DNA of 60,261 nt from Rhodospirillales bacterium (lineage in GTDB: Bacteria; Pseudomonadota; Gammaproteobacteria; Steroidobacterales; JAHEKG01). Shown here piece by piece: positions 1,500 through 39,754 of this stretch (position 1 is the stretch's first letter; each line of letters opens with the position of its first letter). Location: positions 1 to 60,261 of the forward strand of contig JAHEKG010000002.1 in the NCBI GenBank assembly GCA_024638475.1, read 5' to 3'. The translations under genes were made by a program, and so were the position numbers. The notes under the pieces were generated by a model. The model made no database searches. It saw only the letters and a list, made by a program, of their open reading frames with translations, and was not told the DNA's origin.

Positions 1500-3989
1500 A
1501 TGAGCAAGCATATCGTCGTCGTCGAGTCGCCCGCCAAGGCCAAGACTATCGAGAAGTACCTGGGTAAGGATTTCCAGGTACTTGCTTCCTATGGCCATGT
1601 GCGCGATCTGGTCCCCAAGGAAGGGGCGGTTGATACCGAAAACGACTTTGCGATGAAGTATCGCCTTATCGAGCGCAACGAAAAGCACCTGGAAAAAATT
1701 GCCAAGGCGATGAAAAAGGCCGAATCGCTTTATTTGGCCACTGATCCGGACCGCGAGGGTGAAGCGATCTCGTGGCATGTCTTCGAAGTACTCCAAGAGC
1801 GCGGCCTGCTCGAGAACAAACATGTTGCACGCGTCGCCTTCTATGAGATCACCAAAAGAGCCATTCAAGACGCGATCAATAACCCCCGCGAACTGTCCGG
1901 TGAGCTGATCAACGCTCAACAAGCGCGGCGAGCACTCGACTATCTGGTTGGCTTTAACCTGTCGCCGCTACTTTGGAAAAAGGTCCGGCGTGGGTTGTCC
2001 GCCGGTCGCGTGCAAAGCCCGGCCTTGCGGTTGATCGTCGAGCGGGAGTTGGAAATCGAGGCGTTCAAACCTCGCGAGTACTGGACCATCGAGGCACAAG
2101 TCCAAAAACAGGCCGACGAATTTACCGCCCGCCTGTCCAAGTTCGGCGGCGAGAAGGTCGAACAGTTCTCCTTTCAAAACGAAACCCAAGCCAGCGCCGC
2201 CGAAAAGGCCATCAAGGAAAAGGCTGCCGGCGAACTGTTTGTAGCCAAGATCGAAAAGAAACAACGCCGGCGCAACCCGTCGCCGCCGTTTACGACCTCT
2301 ACCTTGCAGCAGGAAGCCTCGCGCAAGCTCGGCTTCGGCGCCCAAAAAACCATGATGACGGCGCAGAAACTGTATGAAGGTATTGATATCGGTGAGGGCA
2401 CCACAGGCCTAATCACGTACATGCGTACCGACTCGGTGGCGATCGCCAATGAGGCCATTGAGGAAATCCGCGCAACGATCAAACAGCGCTATGGCGCCGA
2501 CAAGGTGCCGGACGCGGTGCGGACCTTCAAAACCAAGGCCAAGAACGCCCAAGAAGCACACGAGGCGATCCGGCCAACTTCGGCGGCGTTAACGCCCGCC
2601 GATTTGAAAGGCCATTTGGAAAGGGATCAACTTCGACTCTACGATCTTATTTGGAAAAGAACGTTGGCCTGTCAGATGACTCACGCCCTGTTTAACACGG
2701 TCGGCTTGGATCTGGCCGCCGGGCGCGACGCAGCCAGCGACATCGCTTTCCGGGCCACCGGATCCGTACTCGTTGAGCCCGGATTCATGAGTGTTTATCA
2801 GGAGGGCAGCGACGACAAAAGCGGCTCCGACGATCAAGATCGAATCCTGCCTGACGTCCAAGAGGGCGAGATTCTCAAGCTCAGGGACCTGGCTACCGAG
2901 CAACACTTTACCGAGCCACCACCACGCTACAGCGAGGCATCGTTGGTAAAAGTATTGGAAGAGTTCGGTATTGGCCGACCGTCTACCTATGCTTCGATTA
3001 TTTCCACGCTGCGAAATCGTGAGTACGTAGAACTCGAAAACCGCCGCTTCACGCCGACGGATATCGGTCGCATCGTGAATCGCTTTCTTACCGAGCATTT
3101 CGCTCAGTACGTCGACTACGAATTTACCGCGCGGATGGAAGATGATCTTGACGCGGTGTCCCGCGGCGATCGCGACTGGGTGCCGTTGATGCGAGAATTT
3201 TGGGAACCCTTCAAAGAACAGGTCGCTGAAAAAGAGGCGCTTACCCGCGAAGAGGTTGCCCAAGCCCGGCTGCTGGGTACGGACCCCAAATCCGGACGTC
3301 CCATGACCGTGCGCATGGGGCGCTACGGACCATTCGTTCAGATCGGCACCAAGGACGATGAAGACAAACCCAAGTTTGCCGGCCTGCGCCCGGGGCAAAA
3401 GATGGATGCCGTCACCATGGAAGATGCGTTGGAGCTGTTCAAGCTGCCGCGCAAGCTCGGTGAAACTCCGGAAGGAGAGCCGGTATCGGCGAATATCGGC
3501 CGCTTCGGTCCATATATCCGTTACGGCGACAAGTTCGTTTCCACCGGCGGCGAAGAACCGCTGACGATTACCCTCGAGCAAGCATTGGTACTGATCGCCG
3601 AGAAAAAGATCGCGGATGCCAATCGCGTGATTAACAACTTCGAGGAACAAGGCATTCAAGTATTGAATGGCCGCTACGGTCCCTATGTGACCGACGGCAC
3701 AAAGAACGCCCGCATCCCCAAGGACACCGATCCGAAAAGCCTGACGCTCGAGGACTGCGTCAAGATGATCGAGGCGGCCCCCGCGCGCGGGCGTCGCGGT
3801 AAGAAAAAGGCTAAGACCGCTAAGAAAACCGATGCGCCGACGTTAAAGCAAGCAGCAGCCGCAAAGAAATCCAAGACTAAGCGCAAAACTAAGACCAAAA
3901 CCAAAAAGAAAACTAAAAAGAAAACCAAAAAGGCGACCGCCAAGAAAAAGACCGCAAAAAAGGCGCCGAGCAAACAAGCGGAGCAATGA
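1500..3989 (+). CDS. topA: DNA topoisomerase I (type IA) with Cys-free C-terminal repeats and a lysine-rich tail
   Basis: 829 aa. It has the Toprim start MSKHIVVVESPAKAKTIEKYLG, the DPDREGE motif and the active-site Tyr region GLITYMRTDS. Three GR(Y/F)GP(F/Y) repeats follow, then a roughly 69-aa K/T/A-rich tail. Confidence 0.95.
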   Translation: MSKHIVVVESPAKAKTIEKYLGKDFQVLASYGHVRDLVPKEGAVDTENDFAMKYRLIERNEKHLEKIAKAMKKAESLYLATDPDREGEAISWHVFEVLQERGLLENKHVARVAFYEITKRAIQDAINNPRELSGELINAQQARRALDYLVGFNLSPLLWKKVRRGLSAGRVQSPALRLIVERELEIEAFKPREYWTIEAQVQKQADEFTARLSKFGGEKVEQFSFQNETQASAAEKAIKEKAAGELFVAKIEKKQRRRNPSPPFTTSTLQQEASRKLGFGAQKTMMTAQKLYEGIDIGEGTTGLITYMRTDSVAIANEAIEEIRATIKQRYGADKVPDAVRTFKTKAKNAQEAHEAIRPTSAALTPADLKGHLERDQLRLYDLIWKRTLACQMTHALFNTVGLDLAAGRDAASDIAFRATGSVLVEPGFMSVYQEGSDDKSGSDDQDRILPDVQEGEILKLRDLATEQHFTEPPPRYSEASLVKVLEEFGIGRPSTYASIISTLRNREYVELENRRFTPTDIGRIVNRFLTEHFAQYVDYEFTARMEDDLDAVSRGDRDWVPLMREFWEPFKEQVAEKEALTREEVAQARLLGTDPKSGRPMTVRMGRYGPFVQIGTKDDEDKPKFAGLRPGQKMDAVTMEDALELFKLPRKLGETPEGEPVSANIGRFGPYIRYGDKFVSTGGEEPLTITLEQALVLIAEKKIADANRVINNFEEQGIQVLNGRYGPYVTDGTKNARIPKDTDPKSLTLEDCVKMIEAAPARGRRGKKKAKTAKKTDAPTLKQAAAAKKSKTKRKTKTKTKKKTKKKTKKATAKKKTAKKAPSKQAEQ

Positions 3990-4546: not shown

Positions 4547-5097
4547 AACCGTCGCGTCCAATCCTGTCCGATCGCCAGCGCCGCTGGCGGGCACCGTTGG
4601 TCACCGCGGTGCTTTATCTCATCATGTTCGAATCCGTGTCCGGCTTTCTGCTGTTCTTTTTCGGTCCGTTCTTGGCGACCACGGAGGGGCTGGGCGAACT
4701 CCACTGGTGGGTCGGGGCCCTGTTCTTGCTGCCCTACGGGGTATATCAACTACGCCACTACCAGCGGGTCACGGTCCACTCAGGGAAGTTTCATTTCAAT
4801 CTGGGTCTGTCCAGTTTTGCATGTATGTGCGTCGTGATCATCAGCGGCGTATTGATGTGGCTGGCCGGGTCCCGCGAGACGCTTTACTACGTGGTGGTGG
4901 ATCTCGTCCATATCGTGATCGGCTTCGCGCTGCTGATCATGCTGTCCAGTCATTTGGTGCTGGTATTTCGCGTCGGTAAACTCGAGGAAAGTGAAATCGG
5001 CGCGCCGGCCGCGCGGCGGCGCACCATGGCGCGCGTGCTTTGGATCCCGTTGGCGGTATCTACGCTGGCACTCGGCGGCTGGTGGCTATCCCGCTAG
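4528..5097 (+). CDS. hypothetical polytopic membrane protein
   Basis: 189 aa with 4-5 hydrophobic helices (e.g. LVTAVLYLIMFESVSGFLLFFFGPFL). It overlaps the tsaC 3' end by 19 nt; an alternative ATG lies at 4543. I recognise no family with confidence. Confidence 0.5.
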   Translation: MDTSIMKPSRPILSDRQRRWRAPLVTAVLYLIMFESVSGFLLFFFGPFLATTEGLGELHWWVGALFLLPYGVYQLRHYQRVTVHSGKFHFNLGLSSFACMCVVIISGVLMWLAGSRETLYYVVVDLVHIVIGFALLIMLSSHLVLVFRVGKLEESEIGAPAARRRTMARVLWIPLAVSTLALGGWWLSR

Positions 5098-5510
5098 ACC
5101 ATGTAACGAATGACGTAGAGTGCTTCGCCGGTCGTGACGCTGACTCCCCAAAAGAATAAGAACACATAAGTCAGCGTAGGGTGGTCGCGAAAATAAAATG
5201 CGCCGCGCCGCCACGCCTGATAGGCCTGGAAGACGAATACCACGAGGGCAATGAAGACGATCAGGGAGAGCAGCCCATGGCCAGCGGCGAACAGCGCCAT
5301 GGGGCCGGTGGCTTCGCCGCTGGCAACCTCTGCCCGCAACCGCGAAATCATGTACAGCATATTGACGGAGAACTCGAACACGACGACCACCGCCGCTAAA
5401 CGCCAGGCGAAACCCTTGCCCTGGAAATTGTTGAGCACGACATAGAATACTGCGGCGGTGACAAAGATCTCGGCAATGGCCGAAAAGGTACTAAATAGCG
5501 GTGCTTCCAT
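5094..5510 (-). CDS. hypothetical 4-TM membrane protein
   Basis: The ORF track gives 5094..5594. I prefer the ATG at 5510 (MEAPLFSTFSAIAEIF...) because the hydrophobic core begins there. It converges on the previous gene with a 4-nt CTAG stop overlap. Confidence 0.5.
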   Translation of the reverse strand: MEAPLFSTFSAIAEIFVTAAVFYVVLNNFQGKGFAWRLAAVVVVFEFSVNMLYMISRLRAEVASGEATGPMALFAAGHGLLSLIVFIALVVFVFQAYQAWRRGAFYFRDHPTLTYVFLFFWGVSVTTGEALYVIRYMV

Positions 5511-5673
5511 CTCGGCGCTCCCGGCAATCCAGGGCCGGGACGGTACCAAATCCAAACACTCCGCGCCAATGACCAGTTCCAATCTGGGCCTCACCGCTTG
5601 GCTTGTGGTAACTTGGCAAGAAACACTTGGAAGTTAACGTCTAATAACAGGATTTCCCCGCTCGAAACCCTCG

Positions 5674-8894: not shown

Positions 8895-9494
8895 TCATGG
8901 CTTGCGGGCCGCGGCGGCGCAGGACCGATGACGAAAACAACCCAACAGATGGTCGTTGACCATGCCCGCCGCTTGCATGTGGGCATAAACGGTGGTGCTG
9001 CCGACGAATTTGAAGCCTCGTTGTTTCAAGTCGCGGGCCAGGGCATCGGACTCGGCGGAAGTCGCCGGCACCTGGTCTTGTCGGCGCCAGCGGTTTTGGC
9101 GCGGCTCGCCGCCTACGAAGCGCCAAATATAATTACAGAAACTGCCGAACTCTTCCTGTAGCTCGAGGAATCTGCGGGCGTTGTTAATGGCCGCCTCGAT
9201 CTTTAGGCGATTACGAACGATGCCGGCATCGTTGCACAAGCGCTCGACGGACCGCCGATTGAAACGTGCCACGCTAGTGGGGTCAAAGTTGCGGAATGCG
9301 CGACGATAGCCTTCACGCTTATGCAGCACGGTCGACCAGCTCAAACCCGCCTGTGCCGCCTCGAGAACGAGGAATTCGAACTGGCGCCGATCGTCGTAGA
9401 CGGGCACACCCCACTCACGGTCGTGATATTCGAGATAGGCCTCACTGACTCCTTCACTCCATGGACAGCGCGCAGTTGTCGGTGCCTTGGCCAT
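8895..9494 (-). CDS. tag: DNA-3-methyladenine glycosylase I
   Basis: The sequence CPWSEGVSEAYLEYHDREWGVPVYDDRRQFEFLVLEAAQAGLSWSTVL is typical of Tag. I place the start at the internal ATG (MAKAPTT, 9494) rather than the ORF-track start at 9590. Confidence 0.88.
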   Translation of the reverse strand: MAKAPTTARCPWSEGVSEAYLEYHDREWGVPVYDDRRQFEFLVLEAAQAGLSWSTVLHKREGYRRAFRNFDPTSVARFNRRSVERLCNDAGIVRNRLKIEAAINNARRFLELQEEFGSFCNYIWRFVGGEPRQNRWRRQDQVPATSAESDALARDLKQRGFKFVGSTTVYAHMQAAGMVNDHLLGCFRHRSCAAAARKP

Positions 9495-9621
9495 GCTTAC
9501 TTCGACGTTGCTTTGGTGAGATCGCCCATGGTGTAAAAATACCCGACCCATAGACGCGAAGGAATGGTTGTTTGTGCTTCGAGCCTGCAATTTTACCGGT
9601 GGGCGATTAATTGTCCGGTCG

Positions 9622-9652
9622 AAAAAAAAAGGGCCCCGTGGGGGGCCCTTTC
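9622..9652 (-). terminator. rho-independent terminator downstream of the Cys-repeat peptide gene
   Basis: Read on the minus strand: a GGGCCCC-CCAC-GGGGCCC hairpin followed by a run of nine T (plus strand A9 at 9622-9630). It lies 18 nt after the stop at 9670. Confidence 0.75.
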
Positions 9653-9669
9653 TTGCTACTCAGCGATGG

Positions 9670-9957
9670 CTAGCCCTTATCGCCGCCGCATTTGCCTTCG
9701 CCGCAAGAGCCTTCTTCACCCTTGTCGCCGCCGCATTTGCCTTCGCCGCAGGAGCCTTCTTCGCCCTTGTCGCCGCCGCATTTGCCTTCGCCGCAAGAGC
9801 CTTCTCCACCCTTGTCGCCGAGCTGGTAACCTGACGACAGGTTAGTCAGACCGAACGGGTTCGTTTCCGCATTTGCAGTTGAAACGGCCGCTAAAGAGCC
9901 TGCTAAGGCTGCGCCGACCGCAAACGCTATTGGTTTCATCTTCGTCTGCTCAGACAT
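9670..9957 (-). CDS. secreted Cys-repeat peptide, HvfA / EGKCG-type bufferin-like RiPP metallophore precursor candidate
   Basis: AAGGAG lies 8 nt upstream of the ATG at 9957. The product is MSEQTKMKPIAFAVGAALAGSLAAVSTANA|ETNPFGLTNLSSGYQLGDKG followed by 3 x (GEGSCGEGKCGGDKGE). It has a Sec signal peptide and six Cys, all in xCG contexts. Confidence 0.75.
   Translation of the reverse strand: MSEQTKMKPIAFAVGAALAGSLAAVSTANAETNPFGLTNLSSGYQLGDKGGEGSCGEGKCGGDKGEEGSCGEGKCGGDKGEEGSCGEGKCGGDKG
9674..9820. repeat. three 45-bp in-frame tandem repeats plus a 12-bp partial fourth copy
   Basis: The units are 9674-9718, 9719-9763 and 9764-9808 (cccttRtcgccgccgcatttgccttcgccgcaRgagccttctYcR). They differ at only a few positions and encode the GDKGEEGSCGEGKCG units. 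Confidence 0.95.
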
Positions 9958-10016
9958 TTCTAACTTCTCCTTACTAGTCACGCGCCCTTAACGGGCTCAA
10001 AAACCGGGGTGGACGG

Positions 10017-10721
10017 CTAAATGCTCCATTCCACCGCTCGGGATAAACTCTGCTGAAGAGATTGTAGCGACTCGCCCTCGACGCCCACAATGGCAATGCT
10101 CCCCTGACCATGGGGCATGACGATCCCCTCCAAGTTCTCTTCGACAAACTCAACGGTCATGGGTTTCCCGATCTCCTCGGATGGCAGCAACATAACCATC
10201 ACGGGGCCTTGCTTGCCCTGTACGACGAGGTGCGGTACCCATTTACCGCGAAAAAAACACGAGTGTGCGTAGGTAATCGTCGGCAATTGACTTTCATCCA
10301 GTACTACCTTGCCCGCGATGGCCTTGCGAAGTTTCGGCGAATCGACCGGCTGATCGGTCACTACCCATGAATACGGTTCGTGCTGCCAATGTTCGAGGAC
10401 ATCGCCCTCCATGGTATCTGTCGGGCGGAGTAGCCCTTGGCCCACACCCAGTATCACTGCCGCGACTATCGCCGCCGCCATGCCGACCGGTACCAGGCGC
10501 GGCCAACGTTTTCTCACGGGTGCCGGTTGAGCCGCTTTATCCGCCGTGACGTCGAAGCGCAATGCGCGCGCGATCAATGCCTCCGCCCGGCGCGCCCGCT
10601 GCGCATAGGCCGCGCAGCCACCGCAGGCCGCCTCGTGGGCCTGTAACGCCGGGTTGTCATCAGCGGGATCGCTGAGCAACTCGGCCCGAAATCTTTCGCA
10701 GTCCATTGTCATGTCGCTCAC
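10017..10721 (-). CDS. membrane anti-sigma factor (zinc-binding ZAS-type N-terminus, DUF3379-like)
   Basis: 234 aa. The N-terminal HEAACGGC fits the H-x3-C-x2-C anti-sigma motif. A single TM helix (VGMAAAIVAAVILGVGQGLL) precedes a roughly 130-aa periplasmic domain. The GTG start overlaps the sigma-factor stop (GTGA). Confidence 0.8.
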   Translation of the reverse strand: MSDMTMDCERFRAELLSDPADDNPALQAHEAACGGCAAYAQRARRAEALIARALRFDVTADKAAQPAPVRKRWPRLVPVGMAAAIVAAVILGVGQGLLRPTDTMEGDVLEHWQHEPYSWVVTDQPVDSPKLRKAIAGKVVLDESQLPTITYAHSCFFRGKWVPHLVVQGKQGPVMVMLLPSEEIGKPMTVEFVEENLEGIVMPHGQGSIAIVGVEGESLQSLQQSLSRAVEWSI

Positions 10722-11236
10722 GCCGACACCAAATCGGCGCTCATTTTCTCAATCAGTTTCTTTCTCGCCCGATGCAGGCGCGTCAGCACCGCACCGGGGT
10801 TAATTTCCATGAATTCCGCGATCTCTTTGGTACTGAAACCCAACATCACCTGTAATACCAAGGGCTCGCGATAATCCGTTTCTAATTGCCATATCGCTTC
10901 GCGCATATCGTCAACGTCCGTGTCGTCTCCCGTCGCAATAAGTGCACAATCCGCCGCCGACAAACCATCAATGTCTTGCGTTTCCAGTCGTTTGCGTTCG
11001 TAGTGGCGGGCGTGTTCCCGCCGTACGATCGTGAACAACCATGTTTTCACCGAGCCTTCGTCTCGCAGTCCGTCCACCGAGCGCCAAGCCCGTAACAGCG
11101 CTTCCTGCACGACGTCCTGAGCCAATTCCGGGTCGCGACTCAACCACAATGCGAACCGGTACAAATCGTCCCGCCAGGGGGCGACTAATCGCTCAAATTT
11201 CAGCCGTCCCGCCTGGGCGGCTTCAGTGTCTGGCAT
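10718..11236 (-). CDS. ECF (group 4) RNA polymerase sigma-70 factor
   Basis: Region 2 reads LYRFALWLSRDPELAQDVVQEALLRAW and region 4 reads FSTKEIAEFMEINPGAVLTRLHRARKKL. The ORF track extends to 11275, but the ATG at 11236 (MPDTEAAQ) is more likely. Confidence 0.9.
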   Translation of the reverse strand: MPDTEAAQAGRLKFERLVAPWRDDLYRFALWLSRDPELAQDVVQEALLRAWRSVDGLRDEGSVKTWLFTIVRREHARHYERKRLETQDIDGLSAADCALIATGDDTDVDDMREAIWQLETDYREPLVLQVMLGFSTKEIAEFMEINPGAVLTRLHRARKKLIEKMSADLVSA

Positions 11237-11359
11237 GGATGGTGACCGGGGGTGGGAGTGGTTTATTACACGCAACGGCGGAAGACCGTGGAAAAGGTAC
11301 CGGATTCAATGGAAAATCCAAGTCTTGACGCCCCTGCCTGGGGATAACGAGGGACAACC

Positions 11360-16489: not shown

Positions 16490-17554
16490 ATGCCCGCCAA
16501 CGACGCCATTCAAGAACGTCGCAGCGAATATGACGTAACCAACACGGTCGACGTGAGTAACCCGTCGGCGGTGCGTAACGCGGTAATGGATCTGTTCAGC
16601 GACCTTTATCCCCACGCCGCCTTCGACTCGCTGTGGTTAGCGTTCCATGATTTCGAGCGCCTGTTCATGGGAGCCGACCCGGAGTATCACGGCGTCGACA
16701 CGGCCTACCATGATATTCAACATTCCCTGGACATGACGCTGGCGATGGCGCGTTTGATCGTGGGTCACGATCGCGGAGTCGAACCCAAGGATCGATTGGG
16801 GGCGGAACGGGCGACGTTAGGCTTGGTCACCTCACTGTTTCACGACGCCGGCTATCTGCGCCATCGGGAGAAAGATCGAGACCAGCGAAACGGGGCATAC
16901 TTCACGCTACGGCATGTCAGCCGAAGTTCCCGTTTTCTGGGCGACTATTTGTCCCGGGTGGGGCTCGAGTCTTGGAGCGACGTCGCCCAGCAGATCGTCC
17001 ACTTCACGGGCTACGAAATCGACTTGGAACGATTAGAACTCGACGATCCCCGCGATAGCGCCGTCGGACACCTGCTCGGCACCGCCGACCTCATGGCCCA
17101 GATGGCCGATCGTTGCTATCTCGAGAAGTGCCGGGATCGGCTGTTCCCGGAGTTCGTACTCGGCGGTATCGCCATCGAGGACCACGCCGGCGAAACTTTG
17201 GTACGTTACCGCTCGGGTAAAGATTTACTCATCAAGACGTTAGATTTTTATCAAAATTCGGCACGCTATCGATTGGAAAAGACCTTCGGGCGAGCGTACC
17301 GATATATTGAAGTACTGTATCGCGGCGACAATCCCTATGTCACTTTCATACAGAAAAACATGAGCTACCTTAGCAAGCTGGTTGCCGGCAACGATTGGGA
17401 CCGGCTGCGCCGTAGGCCGGCGTGTTTTACCGCCGAGCCGGATGCCGAAACCCGCATCGTTCGGCTAGCTGTGCAGCACCTGAAGCAATTGGCCCGCCAA
17501 AACAAAATCCGCTTGCGCGGCGCGCCGCAGGCGCCCGTGCCCGCAACCACCTGA
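16490..17554 (+). CDS. HD-domain-like hypothetical protein
   Basis: 354 aa. The AYHDIQHSLDMT ... SLFHDAGYL pattern resembles an HD metal-dependent phosphohydrolase core. I recognise no closer family. Confidence 0.55.
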   Translation: MPANDAIQERRSEYDVTNTVDVSNPSAVRNAVMDLFSDLYPHAAFDSLWLAFHDFERLFMGADPEYHGVDTAYHDIQHSLDMTLAMARLIVGHDRGVEPKDRLGAERATLGLVTSLFHDAGYLRHREKDRDQRNGAYFTLRHVSRSSRFLGDYLSRVGLESWSDVAQQIVHFTGYEIDLERLELDDPRDSAVGHLLGTADLMAQMADRCYLEKCRDRLFPEFVLGGIAIEDHAGETLVRYRSGKDLLIKTLDFYQNSARYRLEKTFGRAYRYIEVLYRGDNPYVTFIQKNMSYLSKLVAGNDWDRLRRRPACFTAEPDAETRIVRLAVQHLKQLARQNKIRLRGAPQAPVPATT

Positions 17555-29182: not shown

Positions 29183-30736
29183 CTAGTGCGTAAGGGATTT
29201 GATCTCCGCAAGCAGCGCTTGCATCGCCGCCGGCTTACGGAAACAACTGGTAAAACGGGCTTTGTCCTCAGCCGATAATTTTGATGCCGTGAGTGCCACG
29301 ATTGGCTTCGCGTAACCGCGTTTACGCAGATCCTCGGCCGCTTCCACACCGCTCATTCCTGGCAGGTTGCAGTCCATTAATACGATGTCCGGTTCATAGG
29401 CCAAGACTTTTTCCATCGCCTCGCGGCCGTTCTTCGCCACGATAAGTCCATAACCCGCCCGGTGGAGGTAGTACTCGGCCAATGCCAGCATATCTTCATC
29501 GTCGTCGCACACCAGCACACTGACGGGTTTGGTGGCATAGGTTTCCTCCGGGGGCGGCGAAAGCGCGTCGGGCGGTGGGAGGGTATTACCCTCACCCAAT
29601 GCAATGGGAAGATTAACCGCAACCGTGCAGCCTTGGCCCAAGGTCGAGTCCAGTGAAATTTCGCCGCCCATCAGCTTCGCCAAGCGCAACGAAATCGTCA
29701 GCCCCAGGCCGGCACCGGTCTTGCCCGCGTGGGTGCCGCCGCGCTCGAATGCCCGAAACACCTTTTCTTGATCTTCGATGCTGATACCCGGCCCGCTGTC
29801 CGCCACCGAGGAGACCAGGCGGCCGTCCGCATAGGTCGTCACGAGCTGAATGCCACCCTCATTGGTGAACTTAATCGCGTTGCCCAGGAGGTTGATCAGG
29901 ATTTGCCGCAGGCGTACCTCGTCCGCATGAATGACTTGGGGCACCGCGGGGTCGATCGAGCACACGAACGAAAGCTCTTTGTCCGCGGCCATCGGCGCCA
30001 TCATCGCCGCTAAGTCCCCCAACAGCTCGTGGAGGTCGAAATCCGTCTCCTGGAGCTCGAGCTGGCCGGCGTCCAGCCTGGCATCGTCCAATACCGCCTC
30101 TACCAAGGCATTCAAATGGTGCGCGGATCGGGCAATCGCCTCCACGCTCTTGTGAACTGTGTTGGCCGGCGCGTTCGGTTCACCGGCTAGTTCGACATAG
30201 TTGATGATCGAGGCAAGCGGGGTCCGAAACTCGTGCGACATCATCGCAATAAACTGTCCCTTGGTGCTGCTACTGCGCTCGGCGTCCTTACGGTGATGGT
30301 CGAGCTCGGCTTTGGCTTCGACAAGCTCGCTAATCAGATCTCGCTGCCGGGCGATCAAGCGCTGTTGGCTGGCATGCAAGAGCTTCAACTCGTTAGCCGC
30401 TTGTTGCTTCGCCTGAATCGAGTCGTGGTCCTGCTTCGCGTCCAACAGCACGACGAAATGCCCGTCGTCGGTAGGCAGCGTGTGGACGTGTGCGACGACA
30501 CCGCCGCCAATGGACACGAACTCGAATATTCTGGGCTGACTATCCAGGGACTCGAACAGGTAGGGGGCATATGGCAGGAGATCGGTACCTGGACAGACCG
30601 ATTCCAGTCCGCACCACTGAGTCTCGCCCCAGGCTTCGATCAGATGAAAATCCGCATCGATCTTGACGCACGCTGGCCGCGTATCAACGGAAAAATTTTC
30701 CTGCAGGTAGTCGACGACTTGTTGCGGAAACCTCAT
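29183..30736 (-). CDS. soluble hybrid sensor histidine kinase/response regulator with an uncharacterised N-terminal domain
   Basis: 517 aa with no TM helix. A coiled coil precedes the H-box SHEFRTPL. The N-box is LLGNAIKFT, G1 is DSGPGI and G2 is GAGLGL. The C-terminal receiver reads VLVCDDDEDM...IVLMDCNLPGMSG. Confidence 0.9.
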   Translation of the reverse strand: MRFPQQVVDYLQENFSVDTRPACVKIDADFHLIEAWGETQWCGLESVCPGTDLLPYAPYLFESLDSQPRIFEFVSIGGGVVAHVHTLPTDDGHFVVLLDAKQDHDSIQAKQQAANELKLLHASQQRLIARQRDLISELVEAKAELDHHRKDAERSSSTKGQFIAMMSHEFRTPLASIINYVELAGEPNAPANTVHKSVEAIARSAHHLNALVEAVLDDARLDAGQLELQETDFDLHELLGDLAAMMAPMAADKELSFVCSIDPAVPQVIHADEVRLRQILINLLGNAIKFTNEGGIQLVTTYADGRLVSSVADSGPGISIEDQEKVFRAFERGGTHAGKTGAGLGLTISLRLAKLMGGEISLDSTLGQGCTVAVNLPIALGEGNTLPPPDALSPPPEETYATKPVSVLVCDDDEDMLALAEYYLHRAGYGLIVAKNGREAMEKVLAYEPDIVLMDCNLPGMSGVEAAEDLRKRGYAKPIVALTASKLSAEDKARFTSCFRKPAAMQALLAEIKSLTH

Positions 30737-30738
30737 CT

Positions 30739-31260
30739 TTACCGTTGCAGATCCTTGGCGACAATCGCTTCCGCCAATGCGATCAGGGCTGCTTCGACAT
30801 CGTCACCGGTTTTGGCACTGGTTCGGTACACCTTGCCGAACTCATCCCCCAGCGACTGGATGGTTTCGTCTGCGATCTGCCACAGCGTGGGCAAATCGCT
30901 CTTGTTCAGCAGAAGAACGTCCGGCCGTGCACCATAGCGCTCTTCGATTTGTTGCCGCAGTTTGCGGGCCGACGTTAGAGTCTGCGAGCGAGTACCGTCG
31001 GCGACGTAGACAAAACCCGCCGCCCCGCGAAGGTAGGCGAATTCCCGGGCCCCAAATTGCTCGGCCCCCGCCACGTCCCAAATGATCAGCTTGACCGAAA
31101 CATTCTCGCGGCCGAGTTGTATTTGCTTCGTGTCAATCTTGACCCCGACAGTCGTCAGGTACTTGTCGGAAAAATGGTTGTTGACGAACCGCTCGACGAC
31201 ACTAGTCTTGCCGACTGCGAAGTCTCCAACCACGCATACCTTAGTGGTCAGAGATGACAC
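30739..31260 (-). CDS. Ras/Rab-like small GTPase
   Basis: 173 aa with a GTG start. G1 is GDFAVGKT, G2 is the Thr in YLTTVG, G3 is WDVAGAEQF, G4 is NKSD and G5 is TSAKTG. Confidence 0.85.
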   Translation of the reverse strand: MSSLTTKVCVVGDFAVGKTSVVERFVNNHFSDKYLTTVGVKIDTKQIQLGRENVSVKLIIWDVAGAEQFGAREFAYLRGAAGFVYVADGTRSQTLTSARKLRQQIEERYGARPDVLLLNKSDLPTLWQIADETIQSLGDEFGKVYRTSAKTGDDVEAALIALAEAIVAKDLQR

Positions 31261-32957
31261 TAACGCCCGGCCCGGGCAACGAGAGCTAATTCAACAGTGG
31301 CTTTCCGTTGGCTGGTGTCGTAGGCGGAGGGGCCGGCCGCACCGTCCGCCGGCAGAATCGCGTCCGGCGTTACGCCAAACTCTGCCAGGACCGCGGCAAC
31401 GGCTTCCGCGCGACGAATCGCTAAGCGTTCGTTGGCCGCGGGATCGCCGGAGTTGTCGGTCGAGCCAATGACGGTAACGCGGACCCTACGGTCAGTGGTC
31501 GCGGCACGCGCCTCCAAATCGGCCAGCCGGCGGGAGATTGTTCGCAGGGCCGAATCGGCCGCGGGCGCCAGTGTGGTCCCGCTGACAAACTGAAAACTCG
31601 CCCCGGATAAGGCCTCGACTTCTGCCGTGAGCTGACGCAAATCGCTGTCGATGACGCCGTCGAAGTCGGCAATCTCTATGCCCGCCACATTCAGTACCCG
31701 CGCACGGGTGGCTTCGATCCACTGCTTGGGTGCCTCCCCGGTAACGGTGACAATGGCCCCGGCAATCGTGTAGTTCACGCTGTTCAAGTCACCGATTGCT
31801 TGACCGACGCGCCGAGCGACCAGCTCCGGTTCGAGCGATTGAAACGGCTGCAGCTCGGCGAACACCGATTCGACAGGGATCCCAATCTGCCTGGCCACTG
31901 CCGAGACGTCCATCGCCAGCGGATCGCGTAGCCCGCGCAGGACAATCTTGCCGCCGTCCCGGGCGGCTTCCGCGACGTAGATGCCAGGTGTATCGCGTAG
32001 CGCTGCCGTGAAGTTTTTCAGCTCATTGGCGTCGCTCCATCGCGAAAACCAAAAATAGCCAGCCGCAGCAAGCAGTAATAATCCAATGATGATCAGCGGC
32101 CAGGGGGTACGGCTAGCGTCACCTTCGGCACTTTGGATCGCCTGAAAGGCGAGGCATTTTTCGAGCTCGACCTCCACGCCTGGGACCGACGCCGTGTCAC
32201 CAGCATATTCTCTAACGGCATCGCCGTAGCGAAAATGAATTCGCTCTAGGATGGCGCTGAGCTCGTCGCGCAGCGACTTGGGCGGGACGCCGCGGATGAC
32301 ACACACCAGCAGGGCATGAGGGCCATGCACCGCCCAAAGAGTAAATTCGCCCATATCGGCCGATTCGAGGCGGCCCGTGCGATCCGGGGAAAAACTCTCT
32401 TTTACGAAATCCTGGATTGCGGTGAACATCGCTGACACGGCATCACTGTCCTTGATTTTGGACGCGGCGTGATGAACGTGTTCGATCAAGAGGCCGTTCT
32501 CGCGACTGATGAGGTACGCCTGTTCGATACGGTATAACAGCGTCCTCTGCAGGACGAAATCGCCGAACGGGATGCCCGCCCGGGCGGCCTGCAGCCGCCA
32601 CTTCAGCCCTTTGGGCGTCAGGCTATGCTCGACAGCCGCATTGATTTGCTGCGAAAACTCCCTGAGGGTATGTGTGATGGACTTGCGAATCGCGGGGCCC
32701 ATCACCGGATACAACGCATCGCTGTAGGTCTGCGGGTCGTTGTGGAAAGCTTGTTGCAAGCACTCACCCACCGGCGGCGTCAACGAGTCGACGAGTTCCG
32801 AGCCCCGCTGGTGACTTCTGTGGATCGCCTCCGGTAAGACATCGGCCACGTCGCTGGTGCGCGTTTCCGGCCGTTCCACTCGCTCGGCGATTGAATCCAG
32901 CGCTTGCTTTTCCGCGCCGAACAGCAAATCCTTCAGTTTATCGAGATCGTTCATCAA
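31260..32957 (-). CDS. bitopic membrane protein: cytoplasmic N-domain, one TM helix, BON-like repeats, C-terminal OmpA-like peptidoglycan-binding domain
   Basis: 565 aa. The TM helix is PWPLIIIGLLLLAAAGYFWF, at about residues 290-310. The C-terminus VTVIGSTDNSGDPAANERLAIRRAEAVAAVL is an OmpA_C-type motif. The stop overlaps the GTPase GTG start (TAGTG). Confidence 0.75.
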   Translation of the reverse strand: MMNDLDKLKDLLFGAEKQALDSIAERVERPETRTSDVADVLPEAIHRSHQRGSELVDSLTPPVGECLQQAFHNDPQTYSDALYPVMGPAIRKSITHTLREFSQQINAAVEHSLTPKGLKWRLQAARAGIPFGDFVLQRTLLYRIEQAYLISRENGLLIEHVHHAASKIKDSDAVSAMFTAIQDFVKESFSPDRTGRLESADMGEFTLWAVHGPHALLVCVIRGVPPKSLRDELSAILERIHFRYGDAVREYAGDTASVPGVEVELEKCLAFQAIQSAEGDASRTPWPLIIIGLLLLAAAGYFWFSRWSDANELKNFTAALRDTPGIYVAEAARDGGKIVLRGLRDPLAMDVSAVARQIGIPVESVFAELQPFQSLEPELVARRVGQAIGDLNSVNYTIAGAIVTVTGEAPKQWIEATRARVLNVAGIEIADFDGVIDSDLRQLTAEVEALSGASFQFVSGTTLAPAADSALRTISRRLADLEARAATTDRRVRVTVIGSTDNSGDPAANERLAIRRAEAVAAVLAEFGVTPDAILPADGAAGPSAYDTSQRKATVELALVARAGR

Positions 32958-32974
32958 GTAGCGTTTCGCTTGCG

Positions 32975-33535
32975 CTACCCCTTAGGCAACTTGAAATCCT
33001 TCTTGAGCCTCAGGGCGACCTCGGAAAGCAGCGCAGCCAAATCCTCGCGACCCAACTTCGCCTCGGCCAACTGTGTTTGGCCTTGGAGGCTCGCGTCAAA
33101 CTGATCGGAGGTTTCTTGGATGGTGGCCAACAGCTCTTCGCCTTGGTCTTTCACGGAAGCTCGAAGTTGCCGATTCTCCGATTCGATCTGCTCTTCGACT
33201 TCCTCGAACCAGCCTTCCACTTGACGAGCCAGGCTATCGATATCCTTCGACGTCTGTTTGTTCTCGTCCGTTCGCGCCTTACGTTCCATTTTGAACTGGT
33301 CCGTTAGCTTGTCCAATTCGCGTTTCGTGTAGGCGTCCAACCGTTCCAGCCGCTTGTCGACATGCTTCGATAGCTGCTCAATGGACTTGGTCAGGCTTTG
33401 CTCCATCTCTGCAAAGCGCTTCTCGTAGTCACGCATCTGGCCGCCGAACAATATCTGCCGGATTTGATCGACATTGCCCTCCAAGTCCTCGGTAGCGCTG
33501 GATTGATCTTGTTTCTTATTGTCTCTGCGTGCCAT
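32975..33535 (-). CDS. hypothetical coiled-coil protein
   Basis: 186 aa, highly charged with heptad-like repeats throughout and no TM helix. Its N-terminal motif IRQILFGGQMRDYEKRF resembles the N-terminus of the downstream OmpA-domain protein. Confidence 0.6.
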   Translation of the reverse strand: MARRDNKKQDQSSATEDLEGNVDQIRQILFGGQMRDYEKRFAEMEQSLTKSIEQLSKHVDKRLERLDAYTKRELDKLTDQFKMERKARTDENKQTSKDIDSLARQVEGWFEEVEEQIESENRQLRASVKDQGEELLATIQETSDQFDASLQGQTQLAEAKLGREDLAALLSEVALRLKKDFKLPKG

Positions 33536-33544
33536 GCCCTGCCC

Positions 33545-34273
33545 CTAGCTCTTTTCTTCGATCGGCGTTTCTCGCTCCACTCGGTACCCGTGCTGATAAA
33601 CGGAAATTAGCTTCCAGCCCGTGCCCTCGTTTAAGCGTAACTTTTTTCGCAGGCGGCTGACGTGTGTGTCAACCGTCCGGGTTGAAACGTTATTGTAGTC
33701 GATCCCCCATATCGCCTCTAGGATATGGTTGCGGGATAATAGTTTACCGGCATTCCGAAATAACAGTACTGCCAACCCGAACTCCCTATTCGTGAGAGTT
33801 ATCTCCTCTCCATTCAAGATCACGACTTGGTTGTTGATATCGAGAAGATAAGGCTCGGCCTCAAAGGTATTGTCCGGTGATATTCCAATGCCCGTGCGGC
33901 GAAGAATTGCGGCGACCCTGGCCAGCAACTCCCCGCGCCGCATCGGTTTTACTAAATAATCGTCGGCCCCCGCTTCCAAGGCTCTAACGATACTTTGCTC
34001 CTTGTCCTTGACCGTGGCGACTACTACCGGCGTATTATCGTTCAATTCACCGCGCAGCTTGCGGAGCACCTCGATGCCACTGAGCTCGGGCACTATCCAA
34101 TCGAGAATGTAAATGTCAAAGCTGTCGCGCCGAACCGCCCGCAGGAATCCGGCTGATTCCAGAAAACTGTTGACCGTATAGCCTGCGTCCTTCAGCCACA
34201 GGCTGACGATTTCAGCCTGGTCCGGATCATCTTCGAGAATTGCGATGCGTAGGTGATTTTCGGCGGCATGCAA
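33545..34273 (-). CDS. OmpR/PhoB-family response regulator
   Basis: The receiver reads IAILEDDPDQ...IYILDWIVPELSG. The winged helix reads LTNREFGLAVLL...VDTHVSRLRKKL...GYRV. I place the start at the TTG at 34273, with GAGGG 7 nt upstream. The longer ORF-track version (to 34492) overlaps the Hpt gene. Confidence 0.85.
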   Translation of the reverse strand: MHAAENHLRIAILEDDPDQAEIVSLWLKDAGYTVNSFLESAGFLRAVRRDSFDIYILDWIVPELSGIEVLRKLRGELNDNTPVVVATVKDKEQSIVRALEAGADDYLVKPMRRGELLARVAAILRRTGIGISPDNTFEAEPYLLDINNQVVILNGEEITLTNREFGLAVLLFRNAGKLLSRNHILEAIWGIDYNNVSTRTVDTHVSRLRKKLRLNEGTGWKLISVYQHGYRVERETPIEEKS

Positions 34274-34394
34274 TCTGCGGCCCTCGGATACGAATGGGTG
34301 GTTGCCAGGTATTGTACCGTAAGGCTTCAGAAAATCGGCTATTTCACCGGCGTACGGGCCTGCGGGACGTTCTTGCAGCGTGTGGCGGCACCTA

Positions 34395-34697
34395 TTACGC
34401 GAGTTTGACGTGCTGAAGGTAGCGCTCGAGTTCGGCGAGTAAGGCCGCAACTTCAGCCGCGTGGCGCGATCCGGCGGCGCTCTCCAGCTCACCGCCTAGT
34501 CGCGAGATTTCGTCGAGTCCATAGGCGGCACCGGAGCCAAAGAGTTTATGCGCGGTCAATACGATGGACTCGAAGTCAGCGTCTGCCAACGAAGAGTTGA
34601 GCTGCGCCAGCTCCTCCTCGCGGCGCTTTAGGTATTGCGCCATCAGATATCTGGCGAACGGATCAGCGACCGTTATCGGCGTGCCTTGATCATCCAT
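34395..34697 (-). CDS. histidine phosphotransfer (Hpt) domain protein
   Basis: 100 aa, predicted helical. The AHKLFGSGAAYGL motif fits the Hpt HxxKG-type phospho-His context. Confidence 0.75.
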   Translation of the reverse strand: MDDQGTPITVADPFARYLMAQYLKRREEELAQLNSSLADADFESIVLTAHKLFGSGAAYGLDEISRLGGELESAAGSRHAAEVAALLAELERYLQHVKLA

Positions 34698-39301: not shown

Positions 39302-39754
39302 CTAGTCAGGATTCAATCCGCGTAGAATTTCCGCAGCAACCTCGATTTGCCGGCGGCCCTCGCGAATGTTGTTCTGCGCCACCTCAATAGCCCGCCTGCT
39401 ATCCGTAATCTGTGCATTCCCTGCACGAACTTGATCCGCTGCTTCCTGCAACGCCTGTGCTGACAATTGCGCCGTTGCACTTTCAGCGCGACGCTGCCCG
39501 GCGGCAACCATCTTCTCGCCATCGAGCAATCGTGCTTGTGCTGCGCGAAGCTTGCGCTGGCCTTCGGCAACCAGTTTATGCCCGCTTTCTCCGGTTTGTT
39601 TGGCCAGTTGGCGAATGGCCTCGTAGCGTGGGGAATCCGCTGAGAGGTCCACCTCGACCGGTCGGTCATAGCGGACGGCAGTATCAGCGCAGCTGACAAG
39701 ACCGAGAACCAGGTAAACAAGCACTGCACGAAAGCAATAATCCTGGATGGTCAT
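39302..39754 (-). CDS. hypothetical lipoprotein with a helical Ala/Gln/Arg-rich body
   Basis: 150 aa. The lipobox-like LGLVSC follows a hydrophobic stretch. Predicted coiled-coil-like. Confidence 0.5.
   Translation of the reverse strand: MTIQDYCFRAVLVYLVLGLVSCADTAVRYDRPVEVDLSADSPRYEAIRQLAKQTGESGHKLVAEGQRKLRAAQARLLDGEKMVAAGQRRAESATAQLSAQALQEAADQVRAGNAQITDSRRAIEVAQNNIREGRRQIEVAAEILRGLNPD

Follow-up and report, generated by a model that had tools for sequence, protein, structure and literature searches.

A conserved ECF sigma factor–DUF3379 anti-sigma factor operon with an exported EGxCG-repeat peptide of the HvfA family in Woeseiaceae and related bacteria

The stretch of DNA analysed here (the window; 60,261 nucleotides of contig JAHEKG010000002.1, from a Rhodospirillales bacterium placed by GTDB in the Steroidobacterales) carries on its minus strand three compact genes, which encode an extracytoplasmic function (ECF) sigma factor, a membrane anti-sigma factor of the Pfam family DUF3379 and a secreted Cys-repeat peptide, and which are followed by tag. 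All the elements of the operon outlined in an initial annotation of the sequence, with an ECF sigma factor, a zinc-binding (ZAS-type) anti-sigma factor and a terminal Cys-repeat peptide gene, are present. The three genes are one operon, the logic of which is well supported, and which is probably under the control of its own ECF sigma factor. Among 75 species-level genomes, most of them from Woeseiaceae, about 74 have the same three-gene module between aroE (or aroE and hemB) and tag. The reading favoured here, at about even confidence, is that of a leaderless, self-regulated ECF/DUF3379 switch, the output of which would be an exported EGxCG peptide acting as a periplasmic buffer for soft metals after maturation by an MNIO (DUF692)/DUF2063 enzyme pair encoded elsewhere in the genome.

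The limits of the transcription unit are marked by conserved elements at both ends. A promoter-like dyad, GTAATAA-N15-GGTCA, is found upstream of the sigma gene in 71 of 73 loci, and it ends 6 nt (6–7 nt across the set) before an ATG that, throughout the loci, lines up with the start codon of the sigma gene. The slightly relaxed pattern GTAATA-N15/16-GGTC occurs 77 times in the 1.41 Mb made up by the window and the loci, 75 times at the sigma position and twice elsewhere, with about 5 occurrences expected by chance. An equivalent arrangement, G[ACT]AATAA-N15-CGGTC-TTTATAC-ATG, in which 7 nt separate CGGTC from the ATG, precedes the sigma gene in a distant clade, and the dyad hence stands at a fixed spacing from the sigma ATG in more than 130 loci of both clades, next to the presumed start of transcription. 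No Shine-Dalgarno sequence is seen between the -10-like element and the sigma ATG in any locus and, since no ribosome-binding site fits into this interval, the mRNA is likely to be leaderless. In its simplest reading, the conserved dyad thus suggests a self-regulated promoter of the ECF type.

At the other end, the strong terminator that had been noted between the peptide gene and tag is a 13-bp GC-rich hairpin, GAAAGGGCCCC-CCAC-GGGGCCCUUUC, followed by a U-run (-27.1 kcal/mol, z = -3.1); it was missed by a consensus terminator scanner and detected by folding, and 60 of 67 orthologous loci have a terminator-like structure no further than 120 nt past the stop codon of the peptide gene. The spacer between the anti-sigma and peptide genes, initially estimated at about 60 nt, measures 59 nt in the window and has a median of 61 nt in the 67 loci, of which only three display a terminator-like structure in it, and the fold of the window spacer is indistinguishable from that of shuffled sequences (z = -0.3). 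A second ECF-type promoter ahead of the peptide gene was sought, and not found, in the window and in the orthologous loci. With the dyad located only 5' of the sigma gene and a terminator located after the peptide gene, the peptide would be the only non-regulatory product of the transcript, in agreement with the earlier suggestion that it could be an output of the ECF unit.

The sigma factor contains sigma regions 2 and 4 only (Pfam Sigma70_r2, 58.7 bits; Sigma70_r4_2, 54.8 bits) and its gene is abutted or overlapped by that of the anti-sigma factor, two features that identify it as an ECF (group 4) sigma factor. It also matches TIGR02937 (77.6 bits, cut-off 42.9), and the closest NCBIfam model, NF009170 (PRK12517), is matched with 184 bits, under its cut-off of 197. 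The initial annotation had set the 5' end of the operon at the TTG of a longer open reading frame (ORF), at 11275; the sigma factor most likely starts instead at ATG 11236, because this is where the 75 aligned orthologous loci start. A similar correction applies to the junction with the next gene. The reported GTGA overlap (10718–10721), formed by the sigma stop codon and an alternative anti-sigma GTG start at 10721, is indeed present, but the anti-sigma homologues begin with MDC, which corresponds to ATG 10706.

The anti-sigma factor is a clear member of DUF3379 (PF11859; 91.8 bits, cut-off 33.2) and carries the sequence HEAACGGC, an H-x3-C-x2-C zinc motif. Among 158 full-length representatives, cytoplasmic residues H24, C28 and C31 are conserved in 100% and C3 in 96%, which in sequence terms is the four-ligand pattern of zinc-binding anti-sigma domains. 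On the periplasmic side, H106, C150 and H159 are conserved in 100% and E110 in 97% of the same representatives, a degree of conservation that suggests a metal-binding or redox site in a putative sensor domain. The AlphaFold2 model (26 sequences, mean predicted local distance difference test score, pLDDT, of 81) comprises a helical N-terminal domain, a linker and membrane helix of low confidence, and a beta-rich C-terminal domain predicted with a pLDDT above 90. Comparison of the model with Foldseek yielded MucB/RseB as best matches, with a probability of 0.98 but an E-value of 0.11 over 94 columns, which provides a weak hint at most, and the sequence of the anti-sigma factor had no match among solved structures. 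From the adjacency of the genes and from the domain type, the DUF3379 protein is presumed to inhibit the neighbouring sigma factor.

ZAS anti-sigma factors and three-part ECF modules are represented by RsiW and RslA, RpoE-RseA-RseB and CnrYXH. Like these, the system in the window combines an H-x3-C-x2-C motif and an upstream Cys with a single membrane helix, a periplasmic sensing part and a gene that abuts or overlaps that of the sigma factor. Unlike the third parts of the RseB or CnrX type, however, the third gene encodes here a Cys-repeat peptide and not a folded sensor, and the periplasmic domain belongs to a distinct family. A few Woeseiaceae anti-sigma copies (L001, 9033–9932; L006, 7319–7966) are devoid of the H-x3-C-x2-C motif, and in L001 the N-terminus has been swapped for a longer segment with repeated PVPALKMPxLPP-like stretches.

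The peptide gene begins at ATG 9957, which is preceded by AAGGAG at a spacing of 9 nt. Its product displays an N-terminus that resembles a signal peptide (MSEQTKMKPIAFAVGAALAGSLAAVSTANA|E), followed by the segment NPFGLTNLSSGYQL and by three EGSCGEGKCGGDKGE units. The predicted signal peptide, with a Lys-rich n-region, a hydrophobic core and an A-x-A cleavage motif that are conserved in the alignment, matches the Sec signal peptides described for the EGKCG family (PMC12452194, PMC11252979). The three units and six Cys initially counted in the peptide are borne out by a 45-bp tandem repeat present in 3.3 copies with 94% matches, giving six E-G-[S/K]-C-G sites in which every Cys is preceded by Ser or Lys and followed by Gly; no further EGxCG peptides are encoded in the window. 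The initial annotation had assigned the peptide to the EGKCG/HvfA family and called for a hidden Markov model search to verify it; in this search the peptide matches NCBIfam NF050137 (KCGExKCG_twice, HvfA family) in three stretches with 40.6 bits (cut-off 19.5, E = 1.5e-10), whereas NF050188, the HvfA equivalog model, is matched with 46 bits, under its cut-off of 95, and HvfA models are the only NCBIfam matches at E ≤ 1. On its sequence, the window peptide is hence a member of the HvfA family, but not an HvfA orthologue, because the Haemophilus influenzae HvfA is devoid of the NPF...GY motif. The equation of the EGKCG class with BufA2, which had also been made, does not hold: BufA2 corresponds to Buf_6/12Cys, a family whose conserved Cys, six or twelve in number, stand in Cys-Lys contexts and which forms a cluster separate from that of the EGKCG peptides and oxazolins, and the Cys of the window peptide are all in Cys-Gly context (PMC11626156, PMC12452194, PMC12668002).

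These features are shared by a broad set of homologues, of which 703 were found. In the 76 peptides that are linked to the operon, all but one of the 621 Cys (620) have Gly as the next residue, within an E-[GA]-x-C-G context, with EGSCG as the prevalent five-residue unit (73%), followed by EGKCG (13%) and EGACG (6%), and 75 of the 76 peptides carry the leader [NSTV]PF.[LMI].[STNA][LM]..[GA][YF]. The orthologous peptides contain 4 to 16 Cys, and an operon-linked Woeseiaceae peptide (P0094) is already named "HvfA family" by the NCBI annotation pipeline. A precursor that is linked to MNIO genes (locus L009) is 63% identical to the window peptide and has the same leader motif. The AlphaFold2 model of the window peptide is predicted to be disordered, with low confidence (pLDDT 48). 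Repeat number differs even among near-identical relatives, with two units in a peptide that is 99% identical to the one in the window (P0002), which has three. Two peptide genes (L026, 10722–11306; L086, 10749–11243) are frameshifted inside the repeats, through either assembly error or real decay. Two homologues with an NPF...GY leader (P0012 and P0066) are fused to EF-hand calcium-binding domains, and such fusions correspond to the "second type" of Buf_EGKCG proteins (PMC12452194).

The module is a stable feature of the lineages in which it is found. The contigs of five closer peptide homologues all feature the sigma-DUF3379-peptide order, with aroE (usually accompanied by hemB) upstream, tag downstream and no MNIO gene within 8–10 kb. 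A scan of one genome per species with the DUF3379 alignment yielded 75 loci, nearly all in metagenome-assembled genomes of Woeseiaceae, a family very abundant in marine sediments, and several of them complete chromosomes; the complete genomes with the module include OZ271838.1, OZ246973.1, OZ246981.1, OZ245053.1, OZ245060.1 and Woeseia oceani XK5. The species of the window itself falls outside these 75 genomes, with a best DUF3379 identity of 45%, and in metagenomes the anti-sigma factor and the peptide have relatives with identities of up to 74% and 99%, respectively. The sigma gene is found upstream in all the loci of this set that retain enough upstream sequence. Most of the loci that appear to be peptide-less can be accounted for by contig ends (three), a frameshift (one) or N-masking (one), and only L011 displays a true absence. 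The Woeseiaceae-type lineage and the lineage of the window have hence retained the peptide almost without exception.

A different picture is seen further away. The DUF3379 profile search returned about 1,900 clusters at 50% identity, and a metagenome scan with a distant DUF3379 clade retrieved 80 loci (L089–L168) from freshwater, wetland and soil samples. These loci keep the synteny, with aroE followed by the sigma and anti-sigma genes and then by tag (as in L097, 586–1913, and L116, 1869–3189), but the peptide, with the same type of leader and EGKCG repeats, is present in only 9 of the 57 informative loci. Of the 48 peptide-less loci, 40 have tag as the next gene on the same strand, and in 29 of these the gap is no more than 60 nt, often with an overlap between tag and the stop codon of the anti-sigma gene. 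L087 and L011, in an intermediate clade, are likewise without the peptide. The organization of the distant clade is suggestive of an operon of sigma, anti-sigma and tag genes, possibly linked to alkylation or electrophile stress. Since the sigma and anti-sigma genes are kept without the peptide in other clades, the pair appears to be an older, autonomous unit of which the peptide is an accessory output.

Peptides of the HvfA family bind copper and are normally matured by enzymes encoded beside them. HvfA, the oxazolin of H. influenzae, the fontiphorin FonA and the bulbicupramide MmrA resemble the window peptide in having a Sec signal peptide, a short conserved N-region and E-G-x-C-G repeats, and FonA shares with it an F...L..GY[M/Q] motif. 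These peptides are modified by an MNIO enzyme and a DUF2063 partner, whereas the window gene has no adjacent DoxX, MNIO or DUF2063 gene, stands last in an ECF sigma/anti-sigma operon and belongs to a clade with mostly Ser before Cys. The initial annotation had remarked on the lack of DUF692 and DUF2063 genes nearby, and this holds for the whole window, with 9.6 kb to one side of the peptide gene and 50 kb to the other: no DUF692 (MNIO), DUF2063 or DoxX gene was detected in it by tblastn with the proteins of the L009 cluster or by Pfam scans of 30 of its ORFs. Nor were MbnB, HvfC or DoxX found within ±10 kb of the module in the 75 genomes or at the 80 metagenome loci. In the L009 positive control, where the precursor lies upstream of genes for a Glu-synthase-like protein, DoxX, MbnB/MNIO and HvfC, the genes were detected.

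Precursors that stand apart from maturation genes have been described before. A survey of the MNIO landscape reported stand-alone Buf_EGKCG genes, with modification in trans or no modification as options and with no conserved neighbours (PMC12452194, Fig. 3f, Table 3), and the window precursor resembles these genes in being unlinked to an MNIO gene. According to the same survey, 2,516 of the 2,583 complete genomes with Buf_EGKCG genes (97%) also contain MNIO genes, and 67 do not (PMC12452194, Table 3). Given this co-occurrence, maturation by enzymes encoded elsewhere is the likeliest outcome for the window peptide, and an MNIO/DUF2063 pair elsewhere in the genome would act on it in trans. The leader is consistent with this assignment. 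The conserved MmrA leader has been modelled as binding the recognition domain of the DUF2063 partner (PMC12538549), PL..GY[Q/M]L is found at the leader position in many precursors that adjoin DUF2063 partner genes, and FonA, a proven MNIO substrate, carries VFQASDLGAGYMV at the position of the leader motif and SVFQASDLGAGYMV right after its signal peptide (PMC12668002, Table S6). Furthermore, the MNIO/partner pair FonBC requires the Cys, accepts Ala, Arg or Thr in front of it and has a strong preference for a small residue behind it (10.1101/2025.11.18.689057), rules of tolerance that make EGSCG a plausible MNIO substrate. The product expected from such a reaction has meanwhile changed, and the oxazolone/thioamide that had been quoted for HvfA is superseded by its re-assignment to 5-thiooxazole (PMC12668002 / PMC13097082).

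In the switch favoured here, the sigma factor would be held at the membrane by the DUF3379 anti-sigma factor, through its cytoplasmic ZAS domain, single helix and periplasmic beta-rich domain, until it is released by an envelope signal, for which a soft metal such as copper or a thiol-reactive stress is the most plausible candidate. The freed sigma factor would then transcribe its own operon from GTAATAA-N15-GGTCA as a leaderless mRNA, and the third gene, provided with its own strong ribosome-binding site, would yield a Sec-exported peptide with six E-G-[S/K]-C-G sites. In the cytoplasm, an MNIO (DUF692)/DUF2063 pair with genes elsewhere in the genome would probably turn the Cys of the peptide into 5-thiooxazoles, at -4 Da per Cys, and the peptide, as the dedicated output of the operon, would most probably serve as a periplasmic metal buffer, its metal binding being presumed. 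The alternatives put forward in the initial annotation, namely modification in trans, action without modification and output of the ECF system, are not mutually exclusive.

Four points weigh against such a switch. The sigma and anti-sigma genes persist without the peptide in L011, L087 and 48 of the 57 informative distant loci, often fused to tag, and the primary signal need not be a metal. No MNIO, DUF2063 or DoxX gene lies in the window or within ±10 kb of about 155 loci, and the case for maturation in trans is built on the literature base rate and on motif conservation. In this clade most Cys are preceded by Ser and not by Lys, unlike those of the characterised Lys-Cys substrates. Lastly, the periplasmic metal site is proposed on the grounds of residue conservation, and the Foldseek matches of the domain are weak (E = 0.1).

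The second and third of these points count directly in favour of an alternative that we consider possible, at well below even confidence, in which the same ECF operon operates in genomes without MNIO and DUF2063 genes and the unmodified peptide acts in the periplasm as a free-thiol or disulfide sponge, either metallothionein-like or electrophile-scavenging. The tag link of the module in its relatives, with its hint at electrophile or alkylation stress, is in line with this alternative, as are the absence of the Woeseiales from an order-level table of MNIO-PME1 clusters that includes orders with one cluster, although an older taxonomy may hide the Woeseiales in it, and the existence of the 67 complete genomes with EGKCG but without MNIO genes (PMC12452194). 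On the other hand, a leader typical of precursors linked to DUF2063 partners is kept in 75 of 76 peptides, and the strict Cys-Gly pattern fits the substrate rules of the enzyme. Free periplasmic thiols would be oxidised by the Dsb system, which argues against an unmodified peptide. The presence of MNIO genes in 97% of the complete genomes with EGKCG genes also argues against it (PMC12452194). A bolder formulation would make the Woeseiaceae-type EG[S/K]CG peptides an MNIO-independent class, in which an unmodified thiol sponge for soft metals or electrophiles is the sole output of the leaderless ECF/DUF3379 switch; we hold this formulation to be unlikely, though far from negligible. If it were true, the EGxCG repeat would have a function by itself, electrophile stress would be indicated by the ancestral coupling of the switch to tag (alkylation repair), and a new family of periplasmic metal or thiol sensors would have been found in DUF3379.

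The gene order is constant, the peptide gene coming immediately after that of the anti-sigma factor in about 74 of 75 genomes, and it could also be explained by a peptide that is mainly a regulatory ligand of the DUF3379 periplasmic domain, which would read its metal-free or metal-bound state, as in RseB-RseA or CnrX-CnrY, and feed back on the release of the sigma factor. The weak MucB/RseB-like character of this domain, its invariant His, Cys, His and Glu residues and the predicted disorder of the peptide, as for a binding partner, are compatible with such a role. We nevertheless deem it improbable: many peptide-less lineages keep the sigma and anti-sigma genes and the same promoter, so the switch works alone, and the variation between 4 and 16 Cys is more in keeping with a stoichiometric buffer than with a specific ligand. 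That the peptide gene is a decaying orphan with no present function, left behind by the loss or relocation of an hvf-type cluster, is very improbable in spite of its absence from several related lineages and of the frameshifts inside the repeats of L026 and L086, given that these frameshifts, which sit in repeats and in assemblies of the draft or long-read kind, may stem from sequencing errors, that the terminator after the gene is kept, and that the ORF, ribosome-binding site, signal peptide, leader and Cys-Gly pattern are all kept in at least 70 species in which the anti-sigma factors are only about 30–45% identical.

Control of related peptides by an ECF sigma factor has a precedent in Caulobacter vibrioides, where SigF/NrsF controls the copper-induced bufferin operons buf1ABCD and buf2, and where an ECF pair is likewise found beside a Sec-exported Cys-peptide (PMC11626156). 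The two systems differ in their components. The Caulobacter anti-sigma factor is NrsF (PF06532), a multi-pass protein, whereas that of the window is a single-pass DUF3379 protein of the ZAS type with a periplasmic domain. The Caulobacter precursors are DUF2282 or Buf_6/12Cys proteins with MNIO, DUF2063 and DoxX in the cluster, whereas the window precursor is of the EGKCG type and has none of these adjoining. Unlike in Caulobacter, moreover, the window sigma factor appears to be leaderless and encoded on one transcript with the peptide. In the MNIO survey, genes for a sigma factor and NrsF are found in Buf1 clusters but not in Buf2 clusters (PMC12452194), and the relevant papers and supplements, when searched for DUF3379/PF11859 or for Woeseia together with MNIO terms, returned nothing. 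The departure from published operon organisation claimed by the initial annotation is therefore to be narrowed: the specific sigma-DUF3379-peptide module is the new part, while MNIO-unlinked precursors and ECF control of bufferins had already been published (PMC12452194, PMC11626156).

The module provides a first functional context for Pfam DUF3379, as a ZAS membrane anti-sigma factor that has conserved periplasmic His, Glu, Cys and His residues and is encoded in an ECF operon that is probably leaderless and self-regulated. It also indicates that the "orphan" EGKCG precursors include one large group with a non-random placement, as what would be the dedicated output of a switch across the Woeseiaceae. 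The arrangement sets up a clean test of whether MNIO-unlinked precursors are modified in trans or work unmodified, an open question in the field of ribosomally synthesised and post-translationally modified peptides, and the defined promoter motif offers a means of locating the remaining members of the regulon. The features of the locus are collected in Table 1.

Table 1. Features of the sigma-DUF3379-peptide operon, in window coordinates and in the order of transcription.
Feature	Position	Strand	Basis or remark
-35-like element GTAATAA of the promoter dyad	11263..11269	-	Motif conserved upstream of the sigma gene
-10-like element GGTCA	11242..11246	-	6 nt 5' of the sigma ATG
ECF (group 4) sigma factor, 172 aa	10718..11236	-	Pfam/NCBIfam; start from the 75-locus alignment
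ZAS-type anti-sigma factor, DUF3379, single-pass membrane protein, 229 aa	10017..10706	-	Pfam PF11859
Anti-sigma/peptide spacer (59 nt) with AAGGAG ribosome-binding site	9958..10016	-	Without terminator or promoter dyad
EGxCG-repeat precursor, 95 aa, HvfA / Buf_EGKCG / "Lys-Cys captophorin" family	9670..9957	-	NF050137
Sec-type signal peptide (predicted), residues 1-30, ...STANA|E	9868..9957	-	Read from the sequence
Leader-like motif NPFGLTNLSSGYQL, residues 33-46	9820..9861	-	Kept in operon-linked peptides
Three 45-bp tandem repeats encoding EGSCGEGKCGGDKGE, six Cys	9674..9820	-	Tandem Repeats Finder
Intrinsic terminator at the operon end (predicted)	9620..9654	-	Hairpin and U-run by folding

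Several further observations concern the surroundings of the operon. The tag ORF (8895–9590, minus strand, TTG at 9590, 231 aa) is probably over-extended, as the family models begin matching at residues 41–47, and a sigma-70-like promoter match, CGGACA-16-TAAAAT (9590–9617, minus strand), just past the operon terminator is consistent with a promoter of its own for tag. Four ORFs of the window are without a Pfam match: 957–1922, 5094–5594 and 39302–39754, on the minus strand, and 16490–17554, on the plus strand. The first of these overlaps an 829-aa ORF (1500–3989) and may not be a real gene; the ORF at 16490–17554 is a conserved neighbour, for which the related loci give only weak or faint matches to Npun_R2479. 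Elsewhere in the window, the region 29183–34492 (minus strand) resembles a bacterial Ras-like GTPase signalling cluster, with a hybrid histidine kinase (29183–30736), a small GTPase of the Ras/Roc family (30739–31260; Pfam Ras, 105 bits), a 565-aa ORF, a coiled-coil-like 186-aa ORF and an OmpR-type response regulator (33545–34492).

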